The position numbers and the translations under genes were made by a program. Positions 1 through 45,970 of a DNA stretch of 64,000 bases are shown piece by piece (within the stretch, counting starts at the first letter, position 1; every line of letters starts with the position of its first letter). Source of the stretch: a virus; IMG/VR virus record IMGVR_UViG_3300046694_000299, positions 1 to 64,000 of that record; one strand, given 5' to 3'. The notes under the pieces were generated by a model. That model saw only the letters and a program-made list of their open reading frames with translations, made no database searches and was not told the DNA's origin.

Positions 1-407
1 CCGATCGCGGTGGCCAGCATGGCGGCACCGGCGAACGGTACGGCGATGGTCAGGACGCCGGCCAAAGTCACGGTTGACAGGCTGTGGATCACCGAGGACA
101 GGCCCTTGCAGGCGAGCCAGACCGCGCAGCCGAGACCGATCGACCCGGCTCCGACTCCGATGGAGCCGACAGCGAGGCCGAGTGCCCAGGCGGGCACGAT
201 GCGGCTGTCGGGCTGCGGCACGGGCGGGGTGGTGCCGATGCGGGATCCGTCCCGCCAGGACGGCAGGTCGGGGTTGTCGTATGAGGTGGGCTTCTCGATC
301 TCGTCAACGGCGGCGACGAGGCGGCGAATTTGCTCGCGGTCGGTGTCGGTGGGGGTGGCCTGTCCGGCCGCGGGGGCGGTGGGCGTCGGCTCGGGCAGGA
401 CGGTCAT
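1..407 (-). CDS. Membrane protein, C-terminally truncated by the window edge (Spd-like candidate)
   Basis: My translation from ATG (revcomp of 405-407): MTVLPEPTPTAPAAGQ...AWALGLAVGSIGVGAGSIGLGCAVWLACKG...TVTLAGVLTIAVPFAGAAMLATAI. It has two or more hydrophobic helices and high third-position GC. It is not in the ORF track because it is truncated. Confidence 0.5.
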   Translation of the reverse strand, partial: MTVLPEPTPTAPAAGQATPTDTDREQIRRLVAAVDEIEKPTSYDNPDLPSWRDGSRIGTTPPVPQPDSRIVPAWALGLAVGSIGVGAGSIGLGCAVWLACKGLSSVIHSLSTVTLAGVLTIAVPFAGAAMLATAI

Positions 408-421
408 GGGGTCGGGGTCTC

Positions 422-1033
422 CTAGTCGATTTCGCCGGTGCCGGTGCACACCGTGCAGGGGATACGGCGGTTGCCGTGGATGTTGGATTCGAGGTCGAAG
501 CTGCCCTTGCCGCTGCAGGCGGGGCAGGCGTTGATCGGTTCGGGCGTGTAGTCGGGATCCGGCTGGTGGCCGCCGGCTTGGAGGCCCCAGGCGGCGCCGA
601 TCGCCCCGGCTTTGGCGGCTGCGACGGCGTTGCTGACGGGCTTCTTCGCGGCGCGCAGGGCCTTACGCTTCTGCCGTCGCAGGGCGGGCTTGATCAGTCG
701 CTTCCAGTACACGTCGCGCACGGCCCGCTTGAGGTCGTCGACGATGACGTCGGGGTGGAGGATCCCGGCGAGGACCGCGCCGCCGACTTCGATCTCGAAC
801 GTGTCGACGTCCTCGGCGCGTTCCCGGCCGGTGCTCGCGGCCTGGATCTCCTTGAGGTCTCCGATGGTGAGGAACAGGCTTTCCCAGCTGTGGTAGTTGG
901 AGCAGTTGCCCCGGGCGGGGAAGCCGTCGGAGAAGCCGCGGCCGTCGAGGGTGAAGCTCGCCGTATCGCACTCGGGGCACAGGTGGGGGAGCCCGTCGAT
1001 CGTCATCTGCTGGATTTTGAGCTCGGTGACCAT
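422..1033 (-). CDS. Cys-rich zinc-finger protein (C-terminal DnaJ-type CxxCxGxG pair)
   Basis: Start re-placed to MVTELKIQQ (ATG at 1033), preceded by AAGGAG. Motifs are CPECD at the N-terminus and CPACSGKGS...CTVCTGTG at the C-terminus. Confidence 0.6.
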   Translation of the reverse strand: MVTELKIQQMTIDGLPHLCPECDTASFTLDGRGFSDGFPARGNCSNYHSWESLFLTIGDLKEIQAASTGRERAEDVDTFEIEVGGAVLAGILHPDVIVDDLKRAVRDVYWKRLIKPALRRQKRKALRAAKKPVSNAVAAAKAGAIGAAWGLQAGGHQPDPDYTPEPINACPACSGKGSFDLESNIHGNRRIPCTVCTGTGEID

Positions 1034-1055
1034 TCCGGGATCTCCTTCGCTTTTC

Positions 1056-1217
1056 GGGTCGTGATGCGGGTCGTGATGGGTGGTGACAGTGCAGGCCAGA
1101 GCCGTGATGGGGGTCGTGATGGGTCGTGACGCCGTAACCACCTCGGGCGGGGAATCACCACCCCGTCACGACCTGCGTCACGACCCTGACCTGCGGCGTC
1201 AGAACCCCGTCACGACC
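1056..1217. repeat. Array of seven copies of GGTCGTGA(C/T)G: four direct, then three inverted
   Basis: Direct copies at 1056-1066, 1068-1078, 1111-1121 and 1121-1131. Inverted CGTCACGACC copies at 1164-1173, 1176-1186 and 1208-1217. The array lies in the gap between the translocase stop (1220) and the next start (1033). Confidence 0.85.
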
Positions 1218-1219
1218 TC

Positions 1220-3280
1220 TCAAGCAGCTGCGGCGACGCTTTCGCCGGTGATCTGCTTGATCGTGTCCAGGTGGTATCCGCGGGCTCCGCCGGTGACCTG
1301 AACGGTCGACATGTCGACGGCGAGGTTCATGGCGTCCACGGCGCGCTTCAGCTCGGCGGATACGCGCTGTGCGGCCGTCTTGCGGGATTTGATCTCGTCG
1401 TCGCCGAACAGGGACAGCGCCCAGACGTCGGAGTCGTAAGCGGCCAGGTACTCCCAGATCGCCAGCGTCGATAGGAACTTCGGGTCGTCGGCGGCGGCGA
1501 ACGCCCCGCGCACCATCATCACGATCTTCGGCAGGTCGGAGCGCAGCCGGTCCGCCTCGCTCGCACCGAAGTGATCCAGGCCTGCTGCGGCCAGCGACTC
1601 GGCATCGACCGTCGGGCGGCCGGCAGCGGCCCGCTCGCGTGCACGCCGCATGCCGTCCTGCTCGTCCAGGAAAAGGAACTTGTGCTTCAGCGGCTCACGG
1701 GAGCCACCACCGCGGATGTACGCCTGGGAGGCGTCACGCAGGTCGTCGCCCTTGGCGTTGCCCTCCGCAGGGTCGAGCCGGTCCGGCCGCCAGCCTTCGG
1801 CGCCCGCGCCAGCTCCGAAGACCTGCACAATGTCCTGGTGCCGGGACGGGCCGACGATCTTCAGGGCGATCGAGTCGGCGATGGCCTTGCCGATGGCGTC
1901 CTTCGTCGCCTCCTGTGCCGCGAGGATGAGCTGTACGCGGGACTTGCGGCCCGTCTGAAGGATCTTCACCGCCAGTTCCTTGGCCCGGTCGGAAAGCTGC
2001 GGGTACTCGTCGATGAACAGGACGATCGCCGGACGCTCGGGGGTCGGCTCCCAGTTCGCCTTCATGCCGAGCTTCGCGAACAGCGTCGGCCGGGCCTTCG
2101 CGATCCGGAGGGCCTGGTCGAGGATCGCCTCGATCTGTCCCATGTTGTCGTCTCCGATCGCCCGGACGCCGAGCGTCTCGGCGAGCGGGTCGAGACCGTT
2201 GCCGCCCGGGTCGAGGTCGCCGACCAGTACGTCGGAGCAGGCGGTCAGCGCATCGGCCATCGTCCGCAGGATCACGGACTTCCCGCCGCCGGAGGAGGCG
2301 ACGACGATGGCGTGCACGCCGAGCAGCGACGCCTCGAAGGTCTTGCCGTCCATACGGTGCGCGAGGACTTGCTTGTCCCGCATGCGGCGGCTGTTGGGCT
2401 TCCGCTCCGGTGCGCTGGGCATCTTCGCGAAAGGGTCGGACTGGACAAGGCGCAGGATCACCCGGCCGCGGGACTCCCGGACCGGCTGCGGCAGCAGACC
2501 GTTCTCGGGCAGGTCAAGCGGAGTCTCCAGGTCGGCGGCCTTGGTGACGATGTCGGCCGGCTTGCCCTTGGCGAGGCGGACGGTGACCTCCCAGCCCCAC
2601 TCGTAACGCCGGTTGGCCTCCACCTCCTTGACCTGGATGCCTTCGGAGGCGAGGGCGCGACGGACACACTCGGCGGCTTCGGTGCGGTTGCGGGCGTCGG
2701 CAATCGGGAACGGGTCGCCATCCTCGGCATGGATCTGAACCTTGCCCGGGTCGACGCTGCGGGGCCGGCCGCGCCACACCCCGGCCGTGACTGCCGCCAT
2801 CGCATAGACGGCGGCCATCCACAGCCCGCCTTCGATGAGCCCGTAGGTGGCTGCGCCGGCGACGGGTGCGGCGGCGATACCGCGGGGGATGAGGTAGCGG
2901 CTGCGCCGGTCCTTCAACTGCTGGGTGCGCCGGTTGGCGACGGCCTCGGCCTGCGCCTCCTTGGCCATGTCCCCGTTGGATGCCTTCACCTGCGCGCGAG
3001 CGGTGCGGATCATCTGCGGGTAGTCGCCGAGCATCTTGTCCCGCTCGATGCGGGCAATGTGCCACCAGCCGCGGGCGGACCATCCGATCCACACGACGGT
3101 GGGGTGGTGGCCGACAGTGCGAGCCGTGCGGCGGGCCAGCGCGGCACGGGAGTGAATCCAGGAGGGCAGCTGCCGCTGCGGGGTCGCAGGCCGCTTGTCG
3201 ACGGGGTAGTCGAGCGGCTGTGCGGGGGCTGTCTGTTCGGGCGCCGTCGCGGCCTTCTGAACGGTGGTCGGGGTGGCCAT
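1220..3280 (-). CDS. FtsK/SpoIIIE-family dsDNA translocase, TraB-like architecture
   Basis: 686 aa counted from MATPTTVQK. Hydrophobic N-terminal segments (GIAAAPVAGAATYGLIEGGLWMAAVYAMAAVTAGVW), Walker A VVASSGGGKSV, Walker B VLFIDEYPQL, then a C-terminal extension. Confidence 0.8.
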   Translation of the reverse strand: MATPTTVQKAATAPEQTAPAQPLDYPVDKRPATPQRQLPSWIHSRAALARRTARTVGHHPTVVWIGWSARGWWHIARIERDKMLGDYPQMIRTARAQVKASNGDMAKEAQAEAVANRRTQQLKDRRSRYLIPRGIAAAPVAGAATYGLIEGGLWMAAVYAMAAVTAGVWRGRPRSVDPGKVQIHAEDGDPFPIADARNRTEAAECVRRALASEGIQVKEVEANRRYEWGWEVTVRLAKGKPADIVTKAADLETPLDLPENGLLPQPVRESRGRVILRLVQSDPFAKMPSAPERKPNSRRMRDKQVLAHRMDGKTFEASLLGVHAIVVASSGGGKSVILRTMADALTACSDVLVGDLDPGGNGLDPLAETLGVRAIGDDNMGQIEAILDQALRIAKARPTLFAKLGMKANWEPTPERPAIVLFIDEYPQLSDRAKELAVKILQTGRKSRVQLILAAQEATKDAIGKAIADSIALKIVGPSRHQDIVQVFGAGAGAEGWRPDRLDPAEGNAKGDDLRDASQAYIRGGGSREPLKHKFLFLDEQDGMRRARERAAAGRPTVDAESLAAAGLDHFGASEADRLRSDLPKIVMMVRGAFAAADDPKFLSTLAIWEYLAAYDSDVWALSLFGDDEIKSRKTAAQRVSAELKRAVDAMNLAVDMSTVQVTGGARGYHLDTIKQITGESVAAAA

Positions 3281-3290
3281 GTGGGGGTCC

Positions 3291-4571
3291 TCAGTCCTTC
3301 TTCTGGCGGGCGGTCTTGGCGGCGATGGAGGCCTGCCGGCGGGCGGCGGCGACGTACTGCTGGGTGTCTCCGGACTGGCGTGCCGGAGGCTTGCGTGCGG
3401 GGCCTCGCTGAGTGCGGGGCATTTGGTTTGCACGCTGTGCGTTCGTGGTCTTGCTGAGGGTGTTGACGGGGGTGCCAGTGAGGGCCGCTTCGACGCGCTT
3501 CTCCGCCATGCGACGGCCGGTGATGACGTCGACGCTGTCGCCCGGGTCGGTGCCTTCGATGTCGCGGTGCGCGCGCTTCCAGACGGCTTCGGTGACGGTG
3601 GCCTCGCCGAGCGCGGCGGCCAGCTTCCGGGCGTGATCCCACACCTTCGGGAACTCCTTGGCCCGGGTCTCCGCGAGGTGCTTCGCCTCCTCGGCCGCAG
3701 CCTTGTCGGCGGCCTCCTTCTCGACCCTGCGGCGCTCCTCGGCGTCAGACTTCTCCTTGGCGATCCGCTTGACCTCGTTCTCTGCCGCCTTCCGCTCCCT
3801 GCACGTCAGTGCGCCGTCCCGCTTGCGGATGCGGCCGTGCTCGTGGAGGTCCCACACGCCGGGGCCAAAGATGGAGGCAAGTGCGGTACCGATGGCGGTC
3901 GCGAGGTCGAACTCGGTGATGCCGTGTCCGAAGTTCACGCTGGCGGCGATGAACGCGAGCACCCAGGTGATCAGACGGAAGTGCCAGTGCGGGCGCTGGT
4001 TCGCCACCGCCGCCGCCGTACCGAACGCGACGACGAGCGCCGCGATCTCCAGCAGGACGGGCGCGCCGGCCATCCACGGCTTGGCCGGGTTCCAGAACGC
4101 GGAGATCTGAACGGGCAGGGCGACGGCGGCGCACAGGGCGTAGAAGCTGATCGCCCAGCTGCGCCACTTCTTGTCGGCCTTCTCTACGTTCCTGGTCTGC
4201 TGTTCCTCGGCGTGCTGGTCGGCCTCGGCCTTCAGTCGAGCGGTCTCGCGGGCGCGCTCGGTTGCTTCCCGCTTGGCCTCCGCCTCTTCGATCTTCGCAA
4301 GCTGTTCCGCTTCCTCGCGGCGAAAGCGGAGCGCGGCACGCTCGTTGGCGAGGGCCTGCTTCTCGTTCTCCAGGCGCAGTTGCTCGGCCTTCTCGGCGGC
4401 GAGGACCTTCTCGGCGTCGGCTTCGCCCTCGGCCTTGATGCGCAGCGCCTCTGCTTCGGCGTCGGCGCGCTTCCGGATCGCCTCCGCCTCGGCCAGCGCG
4501 CGCGGATCGAACCGCGGCTCGGAGGCGACGGGCGTCCCGTTGACCTTCTTCTCGACGGATACGGCGGTCAC
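3291..4571 (-). CDS. Polytopic membrane protein with Glu/Ala-rich coiled coil (DUF2637-like)
   Basis: EA-rich N-terminus (AEAEAIRKRADAEAEALRIKAEGEADAEK), four central hydrophobic helices and a charged C-terminus. It sits directly upstream of the translocase. Confidence 0.6.
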   Translation of the reverse strand: MTAVSVEKKVNGTPVASEPRFDPRALAEAEAIRKRADAEAEALRIKAEGEADAEKVLAAEKAEQLRLENEKQALANERAALRFRREEAEQLAKIEEAEAKREATERARETARLKAEADQHAEEQQTRNVEKADKKWRSWAISFYALCAAVALPVQISAFWNPAKPWMAGAPVLLEIAALVVAFGTAAAVANQRPHWHFRLITWVLAFIAASVNFGHGITEFDLATAIGTALASIFGPGVWDLHEHGRIRKRDGALTCRERKAAENEVKRIAKEKSDAEERRRVEKEAADKAAAEEAKHLAETRAKEFPKVWDHARKLAAALGEATVTEAVWKRAHRDIEGTDPGDSVDVITGRRMAEKRVEAALTGTPVNTLSKTTNAQRANQMPRTQRGPARKPPARQSGDTQQYVAAARRQASIAAKTARQKKD

Positions 4572-4624
4572 GGTGGATCAGTCCTCTCGAATATCAGATG
4601 CGGCGTGGGTAGGGACTGCGAGGC

Positions 4625-5287
4625 CTACGCGGCCGGTCCCTCTGTAAGTTGGGCGAGCGCATTGGGGTCGGCACCGGTCGTCAGAGCTCGCTCGACGGAC
4701 CAGCCGGATTCATCGAGTCGGTCTATGACCGCCTGGGGCTTCAGCCCAAGAACTTCGGCCCACTCGGCGACCGCCTTGGTGCGCCCCCGGAAGGTCAGGT
4801 AGCGGTTGCGGCGGGTGTTCCGGGCCTGCTCCTTGTACGTCGCCCACCGGCAGTTACCGGGCTCGTAATTGCCGTCTACATCGACACGGTCGATCGTCAG
4901 GTGATCGGCGTAGGAGGGGCCCATGTCGCGAACGAAGGCCTCAAACGACTCGCGCCACTCCGGGCACACGGTGATTCCTCGCCCGCCGTAATCCGCGTAC
5001 CGATCAAAGTTCGGGTTGGTGGTGCGCGTGATCATTGCGCACCAGATCCTGTACAGGCGCGTGCCGCTCTGGCCGTGAGTGCGGCTGCGAGCGACCGTGG
5101 CTTCGCGAATGCCGCACCCGCAGGACGTCGTCCTGCCGCTCCTGAGGTCACCTCCGACCACAACCGTTTCGTTGCCGCACTCGCAGGTGCAGCGCCAGAG
5201 CACCTTCCCTGCGTTGCTACGGCCGGCTTCCTCGACGACGGCCAGGCGGCCAAACGTCTTGCCGGTTAGATCGACCTTGGGCGGCAT
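4625..5287 (-). CDS. Phage-type HNH-like endonuclease / DNA-binding protein
   Basis: CTCECG...SCGCG Cys cluster, YGGRGITVCPEW, LTIDRVDVDGNYEPGNCRWAT...QARN. This pattern is common in phage homing-nuclease-like proteins. Confidence 0.55.
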   Translation of the reverse strand: MPPKVDLTGKTFGRLAVVEEAGRSNAGKVLWRCTCECGNETVVVGGDLRSGRTTSCGCGIREATVARSRTHGQSGTRLYRIWCAMITRTTNPNFDRYADYGGRGITVCPEWRESFEAFVRDMGPSYADHLTIDRVDVDGNYEPGNCRWATYKEQARNTRRNRYLTFRGRTKAVAEWAEVLGLKPQAVIDRLDESGWSVERALTTGADPNALAQLTEGPAA

Positions 5288-5310
5288 GTGCGCGGTGTCC
5301 TTTCGGAGGG

Positions 5311-5505
5311 TTAGCGGCGGCGGTTGCGGGTGCTGCGCCAGCCGAACGGGCCGGGCAGGTTGAACGAGGTGGTGTCGCGGCCGGTCGAACTGCGGGTGTG
5401 CTGCAGCCCGTTCCGGGACCCGACGGTGATCGACCAGGAGCGGCGGTTGATGTTCAACCGGACGCCGGGGAAGATCCGGATGCTCTTGCGGAACGTGATC
5501 GGCAT
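5311..5505 (-). CDS. Small basic protein (DUF4236-like)
   Basis: Start re-placed to MPITFRKSIRIFPGVRLNINRRSWSITVG. ATGA overlap with the upstream gene stop at 5505. Confidence 0.5.
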   Translation of the reverse strand: MPITFRKSIRIFPGVRLNINRRSWSITVGSRNGLQHTRSSTGRDTTSFNLPGPFGWRSTRNRRR

Positions 5506-5714
5506 CAACGCCTCCGGGCGGGCGCAGGAGCGGGACGACGGCGGGCGGACGTGATCAGGCCGACGGCTGCGGCGAGCAGCAGCACGGCCGGCTGGGCGAG
5601 GACGGTGAACGCGCCCGTCGCAGCCAGCTCGACCGGGGTCGCAGCCGCAGGCCACAGGCCAACGACCAGCAGGTAAGCCCCCAGCAAGAGCCAGAGGATG
5701 GGGTGACGACGCAT
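5505..5714 (-). CDS. Small membrane protein
   Basis: 69 aa, two hydrophobic helices (ILWLLLGAYLLVVGLW; AVLLLAAAVGLI). Confidence 0.5.
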   Translation of the reverse strand: MRRHPILWLLLGAYLLVVGLWPAAATPVELAATGAFTVLAQPAVLLLAAAVGLITSARRRPAPAPARRR

Positions 5715-5816
5715 GACGGCCTCTCTCGAAGGTTTCGGTGGGATGGGGCTGGCCGGTTCTCCTTGGGCCCCGGGCGAGCCGGGGACCGCGGGCAGCCGGT
5801 CAGCTGCAGGGGTGGG

Positions 5817-6011
5817 TCAGCCGCGCTGGTAGCGGGCTTCGACGCCGGTGATCCGCTCGCCCGGCTTCAGCTGCTTGCTGACCTGGTCGGCGGCGTCCGC
5901 TTCGGCCCGCTGCTTCCCGTACATGGGGCTCGGGTTCGACACGGTCCCCGGCACCTCGCGCTTGCTGCCGGACTGGTCGGTGACGGTGACCTTCGCCTTG
6001 AACATGGCCAT
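5817..6011 (-). CDS. Hypothetical protein
   Basis: Start re-placed to MAMFKAKVTV, with GAGAGGA upstream. High GC3. Confidence 0.45.
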   Translation of the reverse strand: MAMFKAKVTVTDQSGSKREVPGTVSNPSPMYGKQRAEADAADQVSKQLKPGERITGVEARYQRG

Positions 6012-6322: not shown

Positions 6323-6511
6323 TCAGGCCTGGCGGAGCTGGTCTTCGGTGAAGGTCGGGGTCCCGAGCGTCAGGTCGAGCTGCGGGTCGCGGAGGCCGTC
6401 GACCTGCACCCGTCCGTCGCCTGTCGGCCAGGCCTCGCCGGTCTTCCCGACCAAGCCGGGCGCGTCCGGGCTGGACGTGACGGTCACCTGGTCACGCTTC
6501 TTGATCGCCAT
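6323..6511 (-). CDS. Hypothetical protein
   Basis: 62-aa ORF with a strong GAAGGAGA RBS upstream. Confidence 0.5.
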   Translation of the reverse strand: MAIKKRDQVTVTSSPDAPGLVGKTGEAWPTGDGRVQVDGLRDPQLDLTLGTPTFTEDQLRQA

Positions 6512-6652
6512 GGGTCTCCTTCGATGCGGTGGACGGGTGGTGGTGCGCGCCCCGGGCTGCGTTCGCGGCGACGTCCGTGGTGACCGGACCGGGGCTGGGC
6601 CGTGGCGGCGGGGCCGCGGGGGACGAATCCCACCGCCACGGGGATCAGGGGG

Positions 6653-6883
6653 TCAGGCGGCGGCCGGGTAGTCGAAGCCGTCGAACTCGGCGAGCAGGTC
6701 CGCGTCGGCGACGAGGCGGATCTGCCGCATGCGGGCCAGATCCCCGTCGCCGCGAGCCTTGGCGTACTCGCCGAACAGGTCGGTGATGGACAGGACGGTC
6801 GCCTCGGCGACAGTCGTGTTCGCGCGGGCCTTCCGGCCGAGCTCGGTGGCGCCAAGATCGGCAGAGAACAGGTACGGAGACAT
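6653..6883 (-). CDS. Hypothetical protein
   Basis: 76-aa ORF with protein-like composition. Confidence 0.45.
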   Translation of the reverse strand: MSPYLFSADLGATELGRKARANTTVAEATVLSITDLFGEYAKARGDGDLARMRQIRLVADADLLAEFDGFDYPAAA

Positions 6884-17531: not shown

Positions 17532-17818
17532 GGGCGGTCTCCTCGGCTGAGGTGCTTGCGGGCACGGGCGATGGCGGCCAGTTCATGAACCTGTGCACTG
17601 ACCTGCGGGTCGAAGTTCGGCGAGTCGACGGCAGGCTCGGGCGGTATGGCGCGGCCGGGGACGATCTGCCAGCCGCACGTCCACACGTAGCGGCAGTTGG
17701 GGCAGCGGTAGCCGGCGATGATCCCTTCGGCGCCGTCGCGGAGTGCGGACTCCGGGAAGACGTCGTAGGTCGGGCAGTTCTCGCAGGCGTCTGCGTAGAG
17801 CGGGTTGGGGTCGGTCAC
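17528..17818 (-). CDS. Zinc-ribbon-like small protein (GTG start)
   Basis: VTDPNPLYADACENCPTYD...YRCPNCRYVW. GTGA overlap with the helicase stop. Confidence 0.5.
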   Translation of the reverse strand: MTDPNPLYADACENCPTYDVFPESALRDGAEGIIAGYRCPNCRYVWTCGWQIVPGRAIPPEPAVDSPNFDPQVSAQVHELAAIARARKHLSRGDRP

Positions 17819-19128
17819 CAGATGGCTCCTGTCTCGCTGTGGCCGGTGAACTCGTTGGCGTCGATGGGGCGGTAGGACATCCAGGGCCACTGCTCGCCCT
17901 GCTTGATGAAGGCGGGCCATTCACGTTCGTCGCGCATGCCGCGCCAGGGGACGACGCGCCGGCCGCGGGCGCCTTCTTCGTTGGCTGCGGACTTCTCGTC
18001 CTCGACGGGGCGCAGGCCGAAGCCGAACTCGGGCCAGCGCATCCACAGTGAGGAGCCGAGGGGGCGGAGGTTGCGGTGGGCGCCTTGCCCGTTGTGGTGG
18101 GGGGCGTGGGCTTCCATGAGGACGGCGCAGCCTGCGGTGGAGCGGGCTTCGTCGATGACGACGGAGACTTTGCGGGCGAGCTCTTCCGAGTTGGGGTCGC
18201 CTGCGTGGAGTCGGTAGATCGGGCCGATGATCAGCACGTCGGGGTTGATCTTCTCGACGCGGCGCATCATCCAGGAGCGGTCCTGTGCGGTCGTGAGGTC
18301 GAGCCCTTCGGGCCTGCACTCGATGTGGAACTGGCCCCGCTTGACCGGCTGCTCCAGGTGGTCCGCTGCATCGAGCAGGGGCCGGAACTTGCGGCGGCTG
18401 GCCGGGGCGCCGTTCTCGCAGTCGAGGGTGAGTACCTTGATCGGCTCAATGGACTGCGAGGTGCGGAACGGGTGGATGCCGGCGGCGAGCGTGACGGACA
18501 TCTGCCGGAGCAGGGTCGACTTGCCGCCCCCCTCGCTGGCGGTGAGGACGAGCCGGTCCATACGTTCGAGGAGGCCGGGGACGATCCAGTCGTAGGCGTC
18601 CTCGTGCTTGACGAAGTCGAGGATGTCCTCGATGACGACGTCGTCGGCTTCCATTCCGCGGTCGCGGAGCTCGCGGCTCATCGTGACGGCCCGCTCGATG
18701 ATCTCGGTGGTTTCGCCGTCGGGGCTGTAGCCCATCTGGACAAGGCGGGTGCCGAGTTCGATGAGCGCGCGGCGCAGGCCGCGGTCCTGGACGATGCCCG
18801 CGTAGTACTCGCCGTTGGCCGCCGTGGGTACGGCCTGGACGAGTTCGTACAGGTAGTTGGGGCCGCCGATGCGGGTGAGGTCGCCGCAGTCGCCGAGGTG
18901 CTTGCCGAGGGTGATCTGGTCGACGGGCTGCCCGGCGAGGAACAGGTTGGCGATCGCGTTGTAGATCGTGACGTGCTGCGGCAGGTAGAACGCTTCGGGG
19001 GCGACGGCGGCCAGGACTTCGGCGCAGGCGAGCGGCGACAGCATGCAGGCGCCGAGGGCGGACTGTTCGGCGGCGAGGTCGCGGGGCGGGGTGCGGCCGG
19101 TGAAGTCGGAGTCGAACTCGTCGGTCAC
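17815..19128 (-). CDS. DnaB-like replicative helicase
   Basis: N-terminal DnaB-type AAEQSALGACMLSP...YNAIANLFLAGQPVDQITL...GGPNYLYEL. Walker A TASEGGGKST. Confidence 0.8.
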   Translation of the reverse strand: MTDEFDSDFTGRTPPRDLAAEQSALGACMLSPLACAEVLAAVAPEAFYLPQHVTIYNAIANLFLAGQPVDQITLGKHLGDCGDLTRIGGPNYLYELVQAVPTAANGEYYAGIVQDRGLRRALIELGTRLVQMGYSPDGETTEIIERAVTMSRELRDRGMEADDVVIEDILDFVKHEDAYDWIVPGLLERMDRLVLTASEGGGKSTLLRQMSVTLAAGIHPFRTSQSIEPIKVLTLDCENGAPASRRKFRPLLDAADHLEQPVKRGQFHIECRPEGLDLTTAQDRSWMMRRVEKINPDVLIIGPIYRLHAGDPNSEELARKVSVVIDEARSTAGCAVLMEAHAPHHNGQGAHRNLRPLGSSLWMRWPEFGFGLRPVEDEKSAANEEGARGRRVVPWRGMRDEREWPAFIKQGEQWPWMSYRPIDANEFTGHSETGAIW

Positions 19129-19371
19129 TTAGAAGATCCCTTTCTCGGCGTAGGCCGCGTAGCCGGTGGCGGGCTTGACGCGGCGGACGATGTCGGCGGG
19201 CATGACGTGCTTGGTGGTCTCGCGGTAGTGGGCGCGCAGGGCGGTGCGGGCGGCCTCGAAGTCGATGTCGTCGAGGACCATCTGCCAGGCGCGGACGTCG
19301 GATTCGCCGAGGGTTCGTTTGTCGATGGCGGCTGCGATGGACAGCAGGTCTGCGGTTTCGGCGAGGGTCAT
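19129..19371 (-). CDS. Hypothetical protein between initiator and helicase
   Basis: 80-aa ORF, tightly packed. Confidence 0.5.
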   Translation of the reverse strand: MTLAETADLLSIAAAIDKRTLGESDVRAWQMVLDDIDFEAARTALRAHYRETTKHVMPADIVRRVKPATGYAAYAEKGIF

Positions 19372-20273
19372 GCGGGCTCCTGGTTGGCGTGGCCGGCTTC
19401 GAGTTCGCGCTGTTCTTGCTCGCGGAACATGGCGGCGAGGGCCTGGCCGGTGGCGACGCGCTGGTCGGCGGTGGACGGGCGAGCCGCAGGGACGGCGTGC
19501 AGCGCGGGCCGCGGAGTGTCTGCGGGCGGGATGGGGGCGAGCTCGCCCCAGGCCGGCATGAAGTAGCGGGCGGAGTCGACGGAGGTGCGGTTCGCGATCT
19601 TGACGGCGACGTCGACCATCGCTGTGGTGCCGGACTTCTTGATCAAGGCGATCAGGGGGAACCAGTCGTTGCCGCGGAAGGGCCAGCGGACGTTGACGCC
19701 AGCGGCGGCGATGCCGTTGATGAGGGGGCGAACGTCGGCGGGGATGCCGTAGTCGAGTTCGACCTCAGCGGCGGGCTGCTGGCTAGCTAGCTTCTTTGAG
19801 TCTGAGGAGTCTGAGGAGAAGGGGGGAGCCACGGCACCTTCTGAAGGAGCCACGGCACCTTCTGAGTGAGCCCCTGCTCCCCCTTGGGGCTTCGAAGGGG
19901 TAGCGGGGGCTCCCCCTTGGGGTAGCCCCGGCTCTCCCTTGTCTACGGAAGGGGTAGCCCCTGCTCCCCCTTCGAAATGAGGCACGAAGAACGTCATTCG
20001 GGTGCCGGGCACCGCGTACAGCGCGCGACCGTCCTTGCCCTTCCCGATCGGCACGCGGAACTCCCAGCCGGCCGCGGCGAGTCGCTTGAGGGCGTTGCGG
20101 ATGACACTGCCGTCCTTGGCGCCGGTCCAGCGGGCGAGATCTTCCAGGGCCACCCAGCTGCGCCGCGTCCGCTCGTTCGCGTCGTCGGCGATCTCCAGGG
20201 CAACGGCGCGCTGGAGGCCGGAGATGTCCGGTCCCAGTGCTTCACGCAGTTGGCGGCGGAGCTCGTAGCCCAT
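19368..20273 (-). CDS. Replication-initiator/organiser-like protein: winged-helix N-terminus, low-complexity linker, C-terminal domain
   Basis: Start re-placed to MGYELRRQLREAL. It sits upstream of the helicase and carries an internal DNA repeat cluster. Confidence 0.5.
   Translation of the reverse strand: MGYELRRQLREALGPDISGLQRAVALEIADDANERTRRSWVALEDLARWTGAKDGSVIRNALKRLAAAGWEFRVPIGKGKDGRALYAVPGTRMTFFVPHFEGGAGATPSVDKGEPGLPQGGAPATPSKPQGGAGAHSEGAVAPSEGAVAPPFSSDSSDSKKLASQQPAAEVELDYGIPADVRPLINGIAAAGVNVRWPFRGNDWFPLIALIKKSGTTAMVDVAVKIANRTSVDSARYFMPAWGELAPIPPADTPRPALHAVPAARPSTADQRVATGQALAAMFREQEQRELEAGHANQEPA
19798..19976. repeat. Iteron-like repeat cluster inside the initiator gene
   Basis: TCTGAGGAG x2 (19801-19818). 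20-bp GGAGCCACGGCACCTTCTGA x2 (19825-19844, 19846-19865). 17-bp AGCCCCTGCTCCCCCTT x2 (19869-19885, 19956-19972). GGGGTAGC x3. CTTCGAA palindromes. Confidence 0.7.
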
Positions 20274-20368
20274 CAGTTCTCTTCTCTCAGGAGGGGTGTC
20301 GCTCGTTCCGGCTGCTTGCTCAGGACAGCCCTCATGGGGGCGCTCGATGCGGCTGGCGCATTGCGCTA

Positions 20369-20431
20369 TAGCCAACATACACTTGGCCACATGAATGTTG
20401 GCTACTGTTGTGCAACTGGATGTGGCCACAT
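20369..20431. promoter_or_regulatory. Operator-like palindromes in the divergent gap
   Basis: TAGCCAACAT (20369-78) pairs with ATGTTGGCTA (20395-404). Perfect 12-bp palindrome ATGTGGCCACAT (20420-31). TGGCCACAT also at 20384-92. Confidence 0.4.
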
Positions 20432-20451
20432 CGCCGTGGGACCATGCCGCC

Positions 20452-20715
20452 ATGACCGAGGAGGAAGTCGTGACCCGCCTGAAGCAGGCAGCCACCGCGA
20501 AGCGCGCCGCAGAAGAGGCCGCTACCGCGCAGTTCGAGAACGCCGTGGTAGACGCGCTGCGCTCCGGACTCAAGCCCAAAACGGTTGCCGACGCGACCGA
20601 CTACAGCTACGAAACGATCCGGCGCATCGCCAGGAAGTACGACATCGGCCGCCTGCGCGAGCCGACCGTCACCAGCAGGAAGAAAGCCCAGCCGGGAGGC
20701 GACTCCCCGGCCTGA
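20452..20715 (+). CDS. Small HTH protein
   Basis: MTEEEVVTRLKQ...TVADATDYSYETIRRIARKY. Confidence 0.5.
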   Translation: MTEEEVVTRLKQAATAKRAAEEAATAQFENAVVDALRSGLKPKTVADATDYSYETIRRIARKYDIGRLREPTVTSRKKAQPGGDSPA

Positions 20716-31945: not shown

Positions 31946-31969
31946 CGCGAACCACGAAGTGGACACCGC

Positions 31970-33262
31970 ATGCCCGGATACATCGAAGACCGCTGGTACA
32001 AGAAGGGCCCCGACGGGAAGCGAAGCCTGCCCACCGACCGCAACGGCCAGGGCAAGCGCTACAAGGTCGCCGGAATCCCCGGCGTCCGGGCCCGCTCCTT
32101 CGACAACCTGACGGGCGCGAAGGGGGCAAAGGCCTGGCTGGCGAAGGCCCAGCATCAGGCGTCGGCAGGGGAGTTCATCGATCCGCGCCGCGGCGAAATC
32201 CTCCTCCGGGACTACATCGAGGAGGAGTGGTGGCCGAACAAAGGCTACGACGACCCGGCGACGGCGAACACGGTGCACAGCCGGGTCTGGACGCACGTCA
32301 TCCCGCACCTCGGCAACCTGCAGCTGAACGCGGTCAAGACGCCCCAGCTGAAACGCTGGCTCGCCGAGCTCAAAGGCGGCGTCGGCCCGGGGACGGTCAA
32401 CGAGGCCTGGCACTACCTGGCTTCGATCCTGCAGTCGGCAGTCGATGACGAACGGATCACCAAGAACTACTGCCGTTCCCAGCAGTCGGTGCGGCCTCCC
32501 TCGCGGCCGTCACCGAAGCCGCGCGCCTGGAGCAAGGAGCGGGTACTCGACGTTCAGAAGGCGATGGACCCGCGGTTCCAGATCGCCGTCGACATCGGCG
32601 TCGGGGCCGGCCTGAGGGCGGGCGAGGTCTTCGGGCTCGCCCTGGAGGACATCGACGAGGAGAACGAGCGGATCCACGTCAGGCGGCAGATCAAGAAGGT
32701 CGGGTCCAAGCTCTGCTACGCGCTGCCGAAGGGGCAGAAGACGCGGGACGTGCCGGTGCCCTCGTATCTCCTGAAGCGTATTTCGGATCATCTGGCTGCA
32801 CGGCCCGCGCAGTTGGTGAAGCTGCCATGGTCGAACCCCGCCCCGGGCGAGACGGAGCGCGAGAAGGAGCTGCGGGAGCCGCGGGAGCACGCGCTCATCC
32901 TTCCCGGACCGAACGGGGGCGGGATGCGCCGAGACGCCTGGGACACGCGCATCTGGAAGCCGGCCCTTTCGGGGGCGGGCGTCATCGGGCCGCCTGAGGT
33001 AACGAAGCAGCCGGTCCGGTCGCGCCCCGGCGTGACCCGCACGGTGAAGACTTACGCGGAGAGCCGGGAGAACGGCTTCCATGCCCTACGGCACACGTTC
33101 GCGTCGGTGCAGCTGGATGCGCGGGAGCCGATCGTGGCAGTCTCTCAGTGGCTGGGGCACGAGAACGCGTCGATCACGCTGAGGATCTACGCGCACATGA
33201 TGCCGGAGGCGGACGGGCGGGGCCGCACGGCGATGCAGAACTGGTTCGAGGGATCTTCCTAA
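31970..33262 (+). CDS. int: Tyrosine integrase
   Basis: 430 aa. N-terminus IEDRWYKKG...GKRYKV. Catalytic region AGLRAGEVFGL...HALRHTFAS...LGHENASITLRIYAHM. Confidence 0.85.
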   Translation: MPGYIEDRWYKKGPDGKRSLPTDRNGQGKRYKVAGIPGVRARSFDNLTGAKGAKAWLAKAQHQASAGEFIDPRRGEILLRDYIEEEWWPNKGYDDPATANTVHSRVWTHVIPHLGNLQLNAVKTPQLKRWLAELKGGVGPGTVNEAWHYLASILQSAVDDERITKNYCRSQQSVRPPSRPSPKPRAWSKERVLDVQKAMDPRFQIAVDIGVGAGLRAGEVFGLALEDIDEENERIHVRRQIKKVGSKLCYALPKGQKTRDVPVPSYLLKRISDHLAARPAQLVKLPWSNPAPGETEREKELREPREHALILPGPNGGGMRRDAWDTRIWKPALSGAGVIGPPEVTKQPVRSRPGVTRTVKTYAESRENGFHALRHTFASVQLDAREPIVAVSQWLGHENASITLRIYAHMMPEADGRGRTAMQNWFEGSS

Positions 33263-37489: not shown

Positions 37490-38569
37490 CTATGGGGTTC
37501 CACCCCGACGCAGCCCGGCGGCCGCGTTGTCGTCCCATTCGTCGGCGAGCTGCATGTAGCCGAGCATGGCTTTGCTGCCTGGAGCCCAGCCACCCTGCTT
37601 GGCGATGTTCACCGGGTCCTTCCCGTTCTTGCGGCCCTCTGTGGCGAGCCCGGAGCGCAGCGAGTGGCCTGTCCAGCGGATCGGCACGCCGGATCGTTGG
37701 GCGACGCGGGCGACCGCGTTGGTGACGGAGTCGGGCGCCATCGCTCCGCCGATGTGCCCCCAGCGGTCGATCTGAGGGAAGGCGGCCGCCGTCAACTCGG
37801 TGCGCCCGTAGACCTCGCGCCATTGCTGCCAGGCGCGAACGGCGCAGATCTCCGGCTCGTCGATGTTGTACGGGATGGCGACGGTGCGCACGGACCGCTT
37901 CGTCTTGCCAGTGACGACGGCGACCTTGATGCCGCGGGCGTGGACGGTGATGTCGGCGAGGAGTAGGCCGGAGATCTCCGAGGCGCGGGAGGCGAAGTGG
38001 AAGCCGGTCAGGATCAGGGAGAGGTCGCGTCGGCCGGTGGGGCTGTCGTCACAGGCGGCTGCGATGCGGTGCAGGCTGTCGAGGTCGGCGGCCGCGGCCT
38101 TCCCGCGGCCGCGTCGCTCTCCGGCCTTGGCCAGCTGGGTGGCGATGCCTTCCAGCCGGGCGCGTGCTTCGGAGTGGGCGTCCTTGGTTACGGGGCGGCC
38201 GCGCTCGCGTAGGCCGACGATGGCGGCGGTGAGGTGGGAGTGGGCGGAGGTGGGCGCGTATCCGCGGCCGCCGTCGCGGCTGGGGGTTGCGCGGCCACGG
38301 TCGAGCATCCAGGCGACGTAGGCGACGAGCGCGCCGCGGGATCCTTCCGTCTCCGGGAGGCCCTGCTCGACACAGAAGCGCTGCCACACCTTCCAGCCCT
38401 TGCTGTAGGTGTCGGTCGTGTTGGGCGGGGTGGTCGCCTCTTTGATGGCGTCGGCGAAGTCTTCGGCGGCCGCGAGCCGTTCGGCGGCCGCTTCGCCGTG
38501 ACGGGCCGCCCATGCGGTCCGGATCTCCTCCGGCACTCCTCGGCTGAGCTTTTCTACGGACCCGTCCAC
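37490..38569 (-). CDS. Tyrosine recombinase, Cre/XerD-like (GTG start)
   Basis: N-terminal core-binding-type domain (NTTDTYSKGWKVWQRFC). Catalytic FHFASRASE...GHSLRSGLATE...LGYM. AAGGAGAG RBS upstream. Confidence 0.75.
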   Translation of the reverse strand: MDGSVEKLSRGVPEEIRTAWAARHGEAAAERLAAAEDFADAIKEATTPPNTTDTYSKGWKVWQRFCVEQGLPETEGSRGALVAYVAWMLDRGRATPSRDGGRGYAPTSAHSHLTAAIVGLRERGRPVTKDAHSEARARLEGIATQLAKAGERRGRGKAAAADLDSLHRIAAACDDSPTGRRDLSLILTGFHFASRASEISGLLLADITVHARGIKVAVVTGKTKRSVRTVAIPYNIDEPEICAVRAWQQWREVYGRTELTAAAFPQIDRWGHIGGAMAPDSVTNAVARVAQRSGVPIRWTGHSLRSGLATEGRKNGKDPVNIAKQGGWAPGSKAMLGYMQLADEWDDNAAAGLRRGGTP

Positions 38570-38669
38570 ATCTCTCCTTGATGCCGCGTCAATACCCTTT
38601 TGTCGCACGGGATATGAAGAGTGTATCCGGGGTGAGGTCAGCTGGGATGGGCTTCCGGACAAGAAGAAG

Positions 38670-38691
38670 CGCCCCTCCCGGAGGAGGGGCG
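38670..38691 (-). terminator. Intrinsic terminator after the lysis cassette
   Basis: CGCCCCTCC, loop CGGA, GGAGGGGCG, with a T-rich tail on the minus strand. Confidence 0.65.
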
Positions 38692-38796
38692 TCGTCACTC
38701 GGTCTCGTCATCGACCACGGGCCAGGGTGGCGGTTCGAGGAACGGCCACGGCGACAGCCAGAACGGCGGCGGGTCTTCATCGTCCATGCGGTCCCC

Positions 38797-43235: not shown

Positions 43236-43516
43236 ACACTGCCATCGCCATCACCGCGATCATCGCCGCCGTCGTCCTCGCGAACTCCATCGTGATCGCC
43301 GTCCGCGACGTCGCGAAGGCCAAGCACCAGGCGGCGGACGGTCCAGCCGAGGTGGCCATCGCTCGCGTTCGCGCAGTATGCGACCAGTTGCACCGCGCGT
43401 CCGTCCTCGCTGACGGACAGCCGCACACCGACCGCGAACGCGGCGTCATTCAGGCAGTCAGCCGCGTCGTCGCGGCCCTCGACGGCGACACCAACAGCAA
43501 GGAGAGCAACGGATGA
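43232..43516 (+). CDS. N-terminally anchored membrane protein (GTG start)
   Basis: VNTAIAITAIIAAVVLANSIVIAV... Confidence 0.5.
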   Translation: MNTAIAITAIIAAVVLANSIVIAVRDVAKAKHQAADGPAEVAIARVRAVCDQLHRASVLADGQPHTDRERGVIQAVSRVVAALDGDTNSKESNG

Positions 43517-44466
43517 GCGTCTACGGAGTCAGCGGAGGGCAGGGCTTCATCGGCTCCTACGTGCGCAGGGAGCTCCTCGCGCGCGGCCACGAGGTCGTCG
43601 TCTTCGACCGCCACCCCCACACCGAGATGGCGTCCGGCGAGACCTTCTTCCTCGGCGACATCCGCGACGAGACGTCCGTGGTGGAACTCGCCGCGCACGT
43701 CGAGGGGATCATCCACCTTGCCGCCGTGCTGGGCACGCAGGAGACGATCGGAAACCCGAGGCCGTCCGCCGACACCAACATCCGGGGCAGCCTCAACGTG
43801 TTCGAGGCGGCCAACCAGTACGGGCTCCCCGCCGTCTACGCGGGCGTAGGGAACGCGTTTATGCGCGACCTCGGCACCGGCTCGTACACGATCAGCAAGA
43901 CGTGCGCCGAGGACTACGCGCGGATGTTCAACGCCTACCGGGGCGGCAAGGTCACCATCGTCCGCCCCGTCAACGCCTACGGGCCTGGTCAGTCGATCGC
44001 AGCCCCCTACGGAACGAGCCGAGTGAGGAAGATCCTCCCGGCCCTGACCTGCCGTGCCCTCACCGGCGCCCCCATCGAGGTGTACGGGGACGGCACCCAG
44101 ATCTCCGACTGCGTGTACGTCGCCGACGTCGCCCGCGCGTTCGTCACCGCGCTCGAGCACACCGCCGTCAACGGGCCCACGGAGAAGCCGGTGGAGGTCG
44201 GGCCGCTGGAGTCCCTCACCGTCAACGACATCGCGCGCCTCGTCGCCGAGGAAGCCACCCGGTACACGGGCCGCGAGCCTGTCGCGATCAAGCACCTGCC
44301 GATGCGGCCGGGCGAGGTGCCGAACGCGGTCGTGTCGTCCGACACCAGCACGCTCCAGCAGATCGGCATGACCGCCAAGGACTTCGTGCCCCTCGATGAG
44401 GGCATCCACCACACCGTCCGCTACTACGCCGAGCAGTGGCTGCCCGGATATCTGGCGGCGGCATGA
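43513..44466 (+). CDS. NAD-dependent sugar epimerase/dehydratase (extended SDR)
   Basis: GGQGFIGSY and the catalytic SYTISK (YxxxK). Confidence 0.8.
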   Translation: MSVYGVSGGQGFIGSYVRRELLARGHEVVVFDRHPHTEMASGETFFLGDIRDETSVVELAAHVEGIIHLAAVLGTQETIGNPRPSADTNIRGSLNVFEAANQYGLPAVYAGVGNAFMRDLGTGSYTISKTCAEDYARMFNAYRGGKVTIVRPVNAYGPGQSIAAPYGTSRVRKILPALTCRALTGAPIEVYGDGTQISDCVYVADVARAFVTALEHTAVNGPTEKPVEVGPLESLTVNDIARLVAEEATRYTGREPVAIKHLPMRPGEVPNAVVSSDTSTLQQIGMTAKDFVPLDEGIHHTVRYYAEQWLPGYLAAA

Positions 44467-44963
44467 GGCGACTCGACGTCGACGGGCACACGATCCTCAT
44501 CGACAGCGAAGATGTACCGCTCATCAGCGGCTTTCATTGGCGAGTCGTCGCGACCAATCCAACTTGCCCCGACAACCTGTACGCCGTGACTTGCCGAAGG
44601 CGGCTGTACGTCTACATGCATCGCCTCATAGCTGGGGCGGGCCCCAGCGAAGAAGTTGACCACGCCAACGGCAACGGCCTCGACAACCGCAAGAACAACC
44701 TTCGCATCGCTACGGATTCTCAGAACCAAGCGAACAAGGGAAAGATCAGAGTCAAAGGAAAGCGAGGCACCTCCCAGTACAAGGGCGTGTTCTGGGATAA
44801 AGCAAGGAGCGCTTGGGCGACGTCGATCACCGTCAACAAGCGCACGCGCCACCTCGGCCGATTCAGCACGGAAGAGGAGGCCGCTCGCGCCTATGATCGC
44901 GCCGCTATCGCAGCCTGGGGCGAGTTCGCGCGGCTGAACTTCGAAGAAGGAGTCGCCGCGTGA
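44463..44963 (+). CDS. HNH endonuclease with an AP2 DNA-binding domain
   Basis: VDHANGNGLDNRKNNLR, then YKGVFWDK...WATSITVNKRTRHLGRFSTEEEAARAYD. GC is locally lower. Confidence 0.75.
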   Translation: MRRLDVDGHTILIDSEDVPLISGFHWRVVATNPTCPDNLYAVTCRRRLYVYMHRLIAGAGPSEEVDHANGNGLDNRKNNLRIATDSQNQANKGKIRVKGKRGTSQYKGVFWDKARSAWATSITVNKRTRHLGRFSTEEEAARAYDRAAIAAWGEFARLNFEEGVAA

Positions 44964-45970
44964 GGGTGCACTTCTGGTCGGCTGACGAGGCGGGGTCATC
45001 ACTTTATAGAGCGATCCTGCCCGGTATGAGCCTGCAATGGCTTGGGCACGCCGTGTCCGCCGGGATGCGGCTCCCGAAGGACTGGCCCGCCCTGGATGTG
45101 GTCGTCGGCTGCCGGGTTGCCAAGCCTGAGCCGACCATGATGTGGCAGCGATTGAAGGACGAGGGGAAACGCCTCGTCCTCGACCTCGACGACGACTACT
45201 TCCACCTCGACCCCGTCAACCTGGCCGCCGTCCGCACCTGGGACAAGGCGATGCTGCAACGCCTCGCCGACAACATGGCGCTCGCCGACCTCGTCACCTG
45301 CTGCTCCGAGCCCCTCGCCGCCGTGCTGCGGGACTACGCGGCCGACGTCCGGGTCGTCCCCAACGGCCTGCCGGCGCAGTACCTGGGCACGCCCCGCGAC
45401 TACGAGGCGAAGGACCGTCCACTGTCCGTCGGCTGGGCCGGCACGTCGTCCACGGTCGCCGAGCTGCCCGAGGCCGTCCGTGCCCTGAACCGGATCTCGC
45501 AGTACCCGCGATCCGGCGGCGTCCAGGTCCGGATCGTCGGCATCGCTCCCGAGCACGCCATGGCGCTCGGTCTCCGCGGCCGGCAGATCGGGGCTTTGGG
45601 TTGGGTGGAGCGGCACGAGCACTACATGCAGGCGGTCGGCGAGTGGGACGTGTGGGTGGCGCCGTACCGGGACATCCCGTTCAACCGGGCGAAGTATCCG
45701 ACGAAGTGGCTGGAGTCATCGATGCTCGGCATCCCGCTGATCGCATCGGACATCGAGCCGTACCGCCGGGTGATCCGGCATGGGGAGAACGGGTTCCTCG
45801 TCAAGCACGAGCACCAGTGGGGGAAGTACCTCAAGCTCCTCGTCGATAATCCCGGGCTGCGGCAGCAGATCGGGATGACGGCCCGAGGCGAGGCGTCTGG
45901 GTCGATCCTCCAGGCCATCAACGTTCAGTGGCAGGACGCGCTTACGGCCCCGGCGGGGGTGGCGGCATGA
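44960..45970 (+). CDS. GT-B fold glycosyltransferase (GT1/GT4-like; GTG start)
   Basis: C-terminus KWLESSMLGIPLIASDIEPYRRVIRHGENGFLV. Confidence 0.7.
   Translation: MRVHFWSADEAGSSLYRAILPGMSLQWLGHAVSAGMRLPKDWPALDVVVGCRVAKPEPTMMWQRLKDEGKRLVLDLDDDYFHLDPVNLAAVRTWDKAMLQRLADNMALADLVTCCSEPLAAVLRDYAADVRVVPNGLPAQYLGTPRDYEAKDRPLSVGWAGTSSTVAELPEAVRALNRISQYPRSGGVQVRIVGIAPEHAMALGLRGRQIGALGWVERHEHYMQAVGEWDVWVAPYRDIPFNRAKYPTKWLESSMLGIPLIASDIEPYRRVIRHGENGFLVKHEHQWGKYLKLLVDNPGLRQQIGMTARGEASGSILQAINVQWQDALTAPAGVAA

Follow-up and report, generated by a model that had tools for sequence, protein, structure and literature searches.

We describe here a 161-bp array of short repeats in the DNA of a temperate tailed Streptomyces phage, found in a stretch of 64,000 nucleotides (IMG/VR record IMGVR_UViG_3300046694_000299, positions 1 to 64,000) that we refer to as the window. 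The array (1057–1217) lies directly behind the gene for a TraB-like translocase of double-stranded DNA (dsDNA). We propose that it is the recognition and loading site of this translocase, of the same type as the clt loci, with their TraB recognition sequences (TRS), of Streptomyces plasmids. We assign this proposal a probability of roughly 0.72, because of the position of the array, its element-specific repeat that switches as a set, the co-variation of the translocase C-terminal domain with that repeat, and the likeness to published clt loci. A preliminary description of the same DNA, drawn from the letters alone, had suggested that the adjacent TraB-type translocase has a clt/TRS-like site here, and of the explanations considered this one fits the comparative evidence best.

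Architecture of the array and of the adjacent translocase

The motif GGTCGTGAYG occurs exactly seven times in the window, and all seven matches lie inside 1057–1217, four of them direct and three inverted, as the preliminary description had counted. Its coordinates for the minus-strand copies (1164, 1176, and 1208) were right, whereas those for the plus-strand copies (1056, 1068, 1111, and 1121) were one base low; these matches start at 1057, 1069, 1112, and 1122. The gap that it had measured as 186 bp and as holding all seven copies does so and spans 1034–1219, between the translocase stop codon (1220–1222) and the ATG of the next gene (1031–1033). Both genes are on the minus strand, so that the array is downstream of the translocase in the sense of transcription. 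The density of the copies, which had been judged too high for chance, was not reproduced in 100 dinucleotide-preserving shuffles of the window, where the motif was found 0.80 times on average and four times at most; none of the 100 reached seven. Outside the array, the 7-mer core GTCGTGA is at background level, with 15 copies compared with ~14 expected for the whole window, and is distributed without strand skew (nine plus, six minus). The motif is therefore not scattered at similar density in the element.

Five further copies with two mismatches lie in register with the exact ones, at 1079 and 1100 on the plus strand and at 1133, 1153, and 1197 on the minus strand. Together they make 12 boxes of 10 bp with an 8-bp core of GGTCGTGA, six in each orientation. 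The start-to-start spacings of these boxes are 12, 10, 21, 12, 10, 11, 20, 11, 12, 21, and 11 bp, corresponding to a mean slot of 10.8 bp, which places all of the boxes on one face of B-form DNA. Each of the two 21-bp gaps is occupied by a mirrored copy of a 9-bp element, GCAGGTCAG, which we call the S box. As a whole, the array is an imperfect palindrome centered near 1142–1143. The TraB-proximal half-array (1133–1217, minus strand) has six boxes that read GGTCGTGACG on the gene strand; they are located at 1208–1217, 1197–1206, 1176–1185, 1164–1173, 1153–1162, and 1133–1142, and its S box at 1186–1194 (minus strand). The distal half-array (1057–1131, plus strand) has six boxes in the opposite orientation, at 1122–1131, 1112–1121, 1100–1109, 1079–1088, 1069–1078, and 1057–1066, and contains the mirror partner of the proximal S box (GCAGGCCAG, 1091–1099, plus strand). 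Most distal boxes end in GATG, whereas the proximal ones mostly end in GACG.

Related words were seen at two other places in the window. Within the tape-measure gene, GTCGTGA is present six times in 1.6 kb (56336–57976), twice on the minus and four times on the plus strand; just two of the six extend to the 8-mer, and internal repeats of the protein are probably the source of the cluster. In the first epimerase gene, the 17-mer GCAGGTCAGGGCCGGGA (44036–44052, minus strand) matches an S box and its adjacent box with one mismatch. We set it aside, as it is not surrounded by repeats and is probably due to chance, although the expectation for such a match, roughly estimated by hand, is ~0.01.

The gene that precedes the array (1220–3280, minus strand) encodes a TraB-like dsDNA translocase of 686 amino acids that belongs to the FtsK/SpoIIIE superfamily (phrog_12531, "FtsK/SpoIIIE-like," E = 5.6e-111). 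Its longest open reading frame (ORF), which starts at 3433 with a GTG, has an overlap with the upstream gene's end. The homologous proteins, 671–689 amino acids long, begin with MATPTT, which corresponds to the ATG at 3280, and we therefore consider this ATG the real start. The protein contains a P-loop/Walker A motif (ASSGGGKS), a Walker B motif (VLFIDE), and one hydrophobic stretch (residues 133–168) within a long predicted helix, which may be an N-terminal membrane anchor. A search with the full protein returned more than 120 homologues of ~686 amino acids that are 51% identical or more; Streptomyces chromosomal contigs, the largest of 9.3 Mb, contain many of these. The C-terminal 156 amino acids alone gave seven fragments.

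An AlphaFold2 model of the full-length protein, built from 47 sequences, shows an FtsK-like fold for the motor. Its best matches in the PDB are the FtsK motor domains 2IUT and 2IUS (E ~1e-12 to 2e-12; TM-score relative to the target, 0.65–0.69; ~420 aligned columns), followed by TcpA, a coupling protein of conjugation, and the ATPases EccC/EssC. Sub-threshold matches to EccC/EssC were also all that the NCBIfam search of the translocase returned. The last ~106 amino acids (1223–1540, minus strand) are predicted to form a winged-helix-like domain, our proposed reader of the boxes. A model of the last 126 amino acids, based on a 53-sequence alignment, has a predicted local distance difference test score of 89–97 over residues 21–120 and the topology H1-b1-H2-H3-b2-b3-H4, which is the winged-helix order. 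Nearly all of its Foldseek matches are winged-helix proteins (MukE, linker histones, and forkhead), with a best E of 0.058; none fell below E = 0.05, and FtsK gamma was not among the top 50.

Box classes co-vary with the translocase C-terminal domain

We compared the locus with 19 relatives, of which 12 came from scans of IMG/VR and GTDB, six were reached via homologous proteins, and one was found in a scan for the DNA pattern. All are Streptomyces prophages or viral contigs (loci are designated by L numbers), and their TraB-like proteins are 51–84% identical to that of the window. The palindromic layout is identical in all 19 and begins a few bases (5 bp) past the translocase stop codon. The gap measures 183–186 bp, with the exceptions of L017 (~198 bp) and L006/L007 (209 bp); in L018, a gene call at +89 lies within the array. 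The arrays of the relatives align almost without insertions or deletions.

What differs between the elements is the sequence of the box. Based on the commonest heptamers and a slot-by-slot table, we defined class A (GGTCGTGA; the window, L002, L003, L004, L006/L007, L008, L009, and L012), class B ((G/C)ACCGTGA; L001, L005, L010, and L019, with a variant in L016), class C ((A/T)ACCGCT; L011, L013, and L014), class D (GGGCGTGA; L017, L018, and L062), and class E (GCCGTGG; L015). Within one element, nearly all boxes of both arms carry the class sequence, and the copies switch together. We take this concerted change to indicate a reader that acts in trans and whose specificity differs from element to element; because it takes place among direct repeats, it is not what a stem-loop requirement predicts. 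The S box is constant across all box classes, and in the class C and class E elements the box adjoining it is class-independent as well.

A scan of IMG/VR for the 17-mer composed of S and a box returned 39 matches, seven of them beside a TraB homologue, and these seven alone have both the partner and the array. Of the remaining 32, none has a TraB homologue next to it; the context was read for four high-GC matches among them, and these appear to be due to chance. Megablast of positions 1–6000 of the window against the INPHARED phages and the PLSDB plasmids gave no match.

Motors that are nearly identical can carry C-terminal domains belonging to different box classes. The motors of L001 and L005 are 94–96% identical to that of the window, and the motor of L010 is 95–96% identical to those of L002 and L008; over the last 97 amino acids, the same cross-class pairs fall to 65–68%, whereas the class B proteins of L001, L005, and L010 are 74–76% identical to one another. 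Five well-covered columns of the alignment distinguish classes A and B, and all are located in residues 660–707 (numbered on the 737-codon longest ORF). We evaluated this relationship with a permutation test restricted to the 12 loci of classes A and B, whose motors are phylogenetically intermixed. For the C-terminal 97 amino acids, mean identity was 76.8% within and 64.0% between box classes (p = 0.001), and the nearest neighbor had the same class in 12 of 12 cases. Neither the motor (p = 0.17) nor the first 97 amino acids encoded by the downstream gene (63.1% versus 63.1%, p = 0.44, same-class neighbor in 7 of 12) showed an association. Among the three adjacent segments tested (motor, C-terminal domain, and downstream gene), the C-terminal domain alone co-varies with the boxes.

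In the model of the last 126 amino acids, the class-diagnostic residues are W49/E50 in H2 and positions 74–79, A76/Q78 among them, in the N-terminal half of H3. The residues at the start of H3 read R-K/R-T/A-A-A-Q in class A, R-L-A-G-A-K in class B, and H/S-L-L-A-A/T-R in class C.

These data suggest a model in which the winged-helix domain of a single translocase subunit would recognize each box. By binding cooperatively to one face of the DNA, the subunits would nucleate a hexamer, loading a ring onto the element's own dsDNA, which the FtsK-like motor would then drive through a pore in a membrane or septum. More speculatively, the inverted half-arrays could load two rings in opposite orientation, which would thread both arms of a circular genome, and the invariant S box could be a common assembly or bending core or a site for a conserved partner.

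Weighing a clt/TRS-type site against other roles

Several observations weigh against a clt/TRS-type site. The argument for it is a comparative inference from ~20 loci that are phylogenetically related. In Pfam, neither FtsK_SpoIIIE (PF01580) nor FtsK_gamma matched the translocase, and AAA_22 was sub-threshold; a sequence search of the PDB with the translocase found no match, and pIJ101 Tra resembles it locally, around Walker B (E = 8e-5). The winged-helix assignment of the C-terminal domain is drawn from the topology of the model and its weak Foldseek matches. Linkage contributes to the co-variation, as the DNA that encodes the C-terminal domain adjoins the array; linkage alone is insufficient, however, because the equally close downstream gene shows no co-variation. 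The S box and its neighbor in classes C and E appear to be constrained by something besides the variable recognition helix, which may be a conserved part of the translocase, the DUF2637-like partner encoded next to it, a host factor, or DNA structure. The array is also a 6+6 inverted, helically phased palindrome, whereas published accounts of clt, in the excerpts available to us, stress direct repeats and mention no such 6+6 inversion. Finally, the stability of the hairpin that this palindrome can form leaves room for a role at the RNA level.

The last point leads to a different explanation, in which the palindrome acts mainly as RNA or as a single strand and the boxes are incidental. The hairpin would then belong to the 3' end of the traB message, as a terminator that lacks a U-tract, a stabilizer, or an RNase III site, or else would form in antisense RNA or single-stranded DNA. 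The 189-nt gap segment does fold into one long hairpin (RNA, −101 kcal/mol, z = −5.7; DNA, −48.5 kcal/mol, z = −3.6), and the RNAalifold consensus contains a stem of 45 pairs. The complement of the traB mRNA folds better than the sense strand in 18 of 19 arrays, by ~11 kcal/mol on average (an estimate from the listed energies), which makes the sense RNA the less stable strand. Mismatches between the arms are biased, with 159 sense C·A compared with 83 sense G·T, and protein binding alone does not explain this asymmetry; the bias arises largely because the proximal boxes end in GACG and the distal ones in GATG. A hairpin requires pairing between the arms, but not five or six copies of the same box per arm at the spacing of a helical turn. 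In the gapless palindromic register, ~55–65% of positions pair and each array has 12–27 transversion mismatches, and the consensus fold pairs the box cores and S and leaves the linkers unpaired. The changes that would count as compensatory in a hairpin are class switches, in which every box changes simultaneously and which follow a protein domain. A terminator scan of 400–1700 found no G+C-rich stem-loop with a T-run, and a ribosome-binding site and a gene come directly after the array; an Rfam scan of 800–1500 identified no family, only a chance microRNA match. Taken as the main function of the locus, a hairpin is therefore improbable in our view.

We consider it just as unlikely that the boxes are bound by some other protein, such as an SpdA-like protein, a phage regulator with a bank of operators, or a host factor. 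The SpdA site sps (CGTCACGTGACG) is a perfect 12-bp palindrome that is present in one to three copies, conserved among plasmids, and always accompanied by spdA (PMC4170104). Like our array, sps is found near plasmid transfer genes; it contains the heptamer CGTGACG, which is common to the boxes of classes A, B, and D, and spdA adjoins traB on many Streptomyces plasmids (PMC4170104). The class independence of S and its neighboring box also suggests a second conserved binder, and the array is situated just upstream of the ribosome-binding site of the next gene. However, the sps 12-mer is absent from the window, even with one extra central base, and from L001–L026, as is any SpdA2 homologue, and sps is reported to be conserved across plasmids, whereas the boxes differ from element to element. 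The C-terminal domain of the translocase is the only one of the three adjacent segments that co-varies with the boxes, in a test that was confined to the neighbors of the array.

The operator version of this explanation, which the preliminary description had listed for the zinc-finger gene downstream, does not agree with the relatives. This gene (422–1033, minus strand) encodes a 203-amino acid, zinc-finger-like protein with CxxC motifs (Pfam PF00684, DnaJ CXXCXGXG, E = 8e-4, a weak match that misses the curated cut-off). A ribosome-binding site, AAGGAG, precedes it at 1042–1047, the promoter scan detected no sigma-70-like promoter in the gap, and the gene is probably co-transcribed with traB. 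Other genes occupy its place in L006/L007, L017, and L018; those in L006/L007 and L017 are unrelated to it, and the array persists beside them. Because the sequence identity of the downstream gene ignores box class and because it is exchanged in some loci, we do not regard it as tied to the array. L016 encodes a stand-alone FtsK_gamma domain (PF09397, 92 amino acids, 6390–6668 of that locus), two genes past the zinc-finger gene; we rejected it as a rival reader of the boxes, since it is unique to L016.

An iteron origin, a partition centromere, or a cos/pac packaging site, although phased short repeats in a non-coding gap are also typical of iterons, parS-like centromeres, and terminase-binding sites, is very improbable, as box class tracks a translocase domain. 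Iterons adjoin their initiator gene, whereas here the genes for the replication-initiator-like protein (19368–20600, ~18 kb from the array) and the DnaB-like helicase (17815–19128) are both more than 16 kb away, which disfavors the replication site considered in the preliminary description. No ParA or ParB was detected among the ~45 window proteins scanned, and the element has an integrase. A packaging site, raised in the same description, could be connected with the HNH endonuclease gene located 3.4 kb upstream, HNH proteins being often tied to cos packaging. In the relative L026, however, the terminase-like, portal, and capsid genes are ~5 kb beyond the array, and the same layout follows plasmid TraB genes, with no packaging genes seen in the plasmid stretches examined. 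As primary roles, the hairpin, operator, origin, partition, and packaging functions are all less likely than a clt/TRS-type site.

The HNH endonuclease gene itself (4625–5287, minus strand; phrog_374, E = 1.6e-77) is two genes upstream of the translocase and sits several kilobases before the expected packaging genes.

Phage context and relation to known transfer systems

The window encodes a tape-measure protein, a minor tail protein, an endolysin, an integrase, and excisionase-like and repressor-like proteins, together with an exonuclease, annealing proteins, a replication-initiator-like protein, a DnaB-like helicase, and an HNH endonuclease; it is a temperate tailed Streptomyces phage. Directly upstream of the translocase, and part of the same module, is the gene for a 426-amino acid membrane/coiled-coil protein (3291–4571, minus strand) that is 27% identical to the DUF2637 protein of the plasmid pFP1 (E = 3e-14). 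A gene for a protein of 373–489 amino acids occupies this position in all loci looked up. We considered whether the translocase module and the tail genes might represent two adjacent elements, and the gene order of L026 rules this out. There, traB precedes, on the same strand, the terminase-like gene and the genes for an SPP1-type portal and the capsid; ~5 kb and ~8 small genes separate them, and the module is therefore part of the phage genome.

Three other regions of the window deserve mention. Two tyrosine-integrase genes (37490–38707, minus strand, and 31946–33262, plus strand) are ~4 kb apart and in opposite orientation; the stretch between them (33.3–37.4 kb) contains small unannotated ORFs alone; it may represent a moron region or another small integrated element. 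A sugar-modification cluster (43414–48442, plus strand) comprises two NAD-dependent epimerase/dehydratases, three glycosyltransferases, and one unassigned ORF. Located between the genes for lysis and those for the tail, and on the opposite strand, it may be cargo for lysogenic conversion or modification of the cell envelope. Two adjacent, overlapping NUDIX hydrolase ORFs (9012–10108, plus strand) are encoded on the strand opposite to the surrounding early genes.

A broader interpretation, which we advance only tentatively and regard as doubtful, is that a widespread family of temperate Streptomyces siphophages has co-opted a plasmid transfer module (DUF2637-like protein, TraB, and clt) for virion-free movement of dsDNA between hyphal compartments or into neighboring mycelium. 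If this is true, the phage would have a conjugation-like route from cell to cell, and the box classes would stop co-resident elements from mobilizing each other. The 6+6 array with its S core would load two opposed hexamers, a testable answer to how covalently closed circular dsDNA passes through the TraB pore. As a complete module of pump and site is carried by tailed prophages that occur commonly in Streptomyces genomes, some phages may spread in a conjugation-like manner through the mycelium or between strains. FtsK-like genes of actinophages have repeatedly been reported without an assigned function (PMC13587820), and at least one clade of them now has a plausible DNA target. According to the part of the source available to us, clt/TRS has been defined experimentally for a handful of plasmids and not for pSAM2, the archetypal actinomycete integrative and conjugative element (AICE) (PMC9513070). 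The loci described here form a natural specificity series, with at least five box classes, closely related translocases, and amino acid differences confined to two helices, so that a TraB-type DNA-recognition code can be tested by residue swaps.

The FtsK orienting polar sequences (KOPS) and the SpoIIIE recognition sequences (SRS) are oriented 8-bp words read by the C-terminal gamma winged helix of hexameric FtsK-family dsDNA pumps, and they set the place and direction of loading. They are dispersed and strand-skewed along the whole chromosome. The phage system shares with them the FtsK motor fold and, as proposed here from the models, an oriented 8-bp word with a C-terminal winged-helix reader; unlike them, its word is clustered in a single 161-bp site and is neither enriched nor skewed elsewhere in the window.

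Among Streptomyces phage elements, the plasmid-phage pZL12 also has tra genes, and its conjugal transfer needs a main tra gene along with two neighboring genes, according to the portion of the account available to us (PMC3583192), which mentions no clt. Unlike pZL12, the family of the window integrates, as indicated by its integrase and by relatives in chromosomal contigs. In the phage collection, the best match to the motor (49%) is in the cluster BE lytic phage Yaboi, whose FtsK-like gene is not followed by an array; therefore, the site belongs to the TraB clade of prophages and plasmids and not to all phage FtsK-like genes.

Among plasmids, the nearest homologues are those of pFP1 (NC_006912) and NZ_CP108056, whose TraB motors are 46–47% identical to that of the window. 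In these pFP1-type plasmids, the order of DUF2637-like membrane protein, TraB, and palindromic array is the same, the array again begins 5 bp past the translocase gene, and a pair of S boxes at +11 and +117 after the TraB stop codon (7550 and 7656 in L021; 4092 and 4198 in L023) is accompanied by inverted repeat sets. They differ in the repeat, which is CTCTAC(G/A), and in having a GntR-type regulator close by; the stretch examined showed no phage genes. On the 413-kb linear plasmid NZ_CP108263 (L024), eight copies of CCGATCG(G) at 4105–4260 follow directly after the stop codon of a distant TraB; this array appears to be a further clt candidate, in which the box is palindromic and an S element is absent.

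The clt loci of pSVH1, pJV1, pIJ101, and pWTY27 are ~50–175 bp long and have element-specific repeats; they lie at or just past the 3' end of tra or overlap it, and consist of 7–9-bp direct and inverted repeats that are bound by the cognate TraB or TraA (PMC3583192, PMC4447253, PMC4170104). The clt of pJV1 has nine 9-bp direct repeats and two inverted pairs. For pSVH1, the available excerpt describes recognition of 8-bp repeats by TraB via helix α3 of a winged helix-turn-helix domain at the C terminus (PMC3583192). The phage array resembles these loci in its position directly past the 3' end of traB, in its multiple copies of a short repeat (12 boxes with the 8-bp core GGTCGTGA), and in the specificity of that repeat for the element, with at least five classes that co-vary with the TraB C-terminal domain alone. 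In size and position, it is nearly equal to the clt of pWTY27, which extends over 16 bp inside traA and 159 bp downstream, contains four 7-bp direct and two inverted repeats, and was footprinted with TraA (PMC3583192). It differs from the Streptomyces loci in that its element is a tailed temperate phage and not a plasmid or an AICE, in that the excerpts available to us (PMC3583192, PMC4447253, PMC4170104) describe no clt repeat with the sequence GGTCGTGA, and in that each arm has an invariant S box (GCAGGTCAG), which is also found in the pFP1-type plasmids. Thus, the new features relative to the known systems are a putative clt/TRS-type site in a family of tailed temperate phages, its phased palindrome, an S core that one plasmid clade has as well, and specificity classes that form a natural series.

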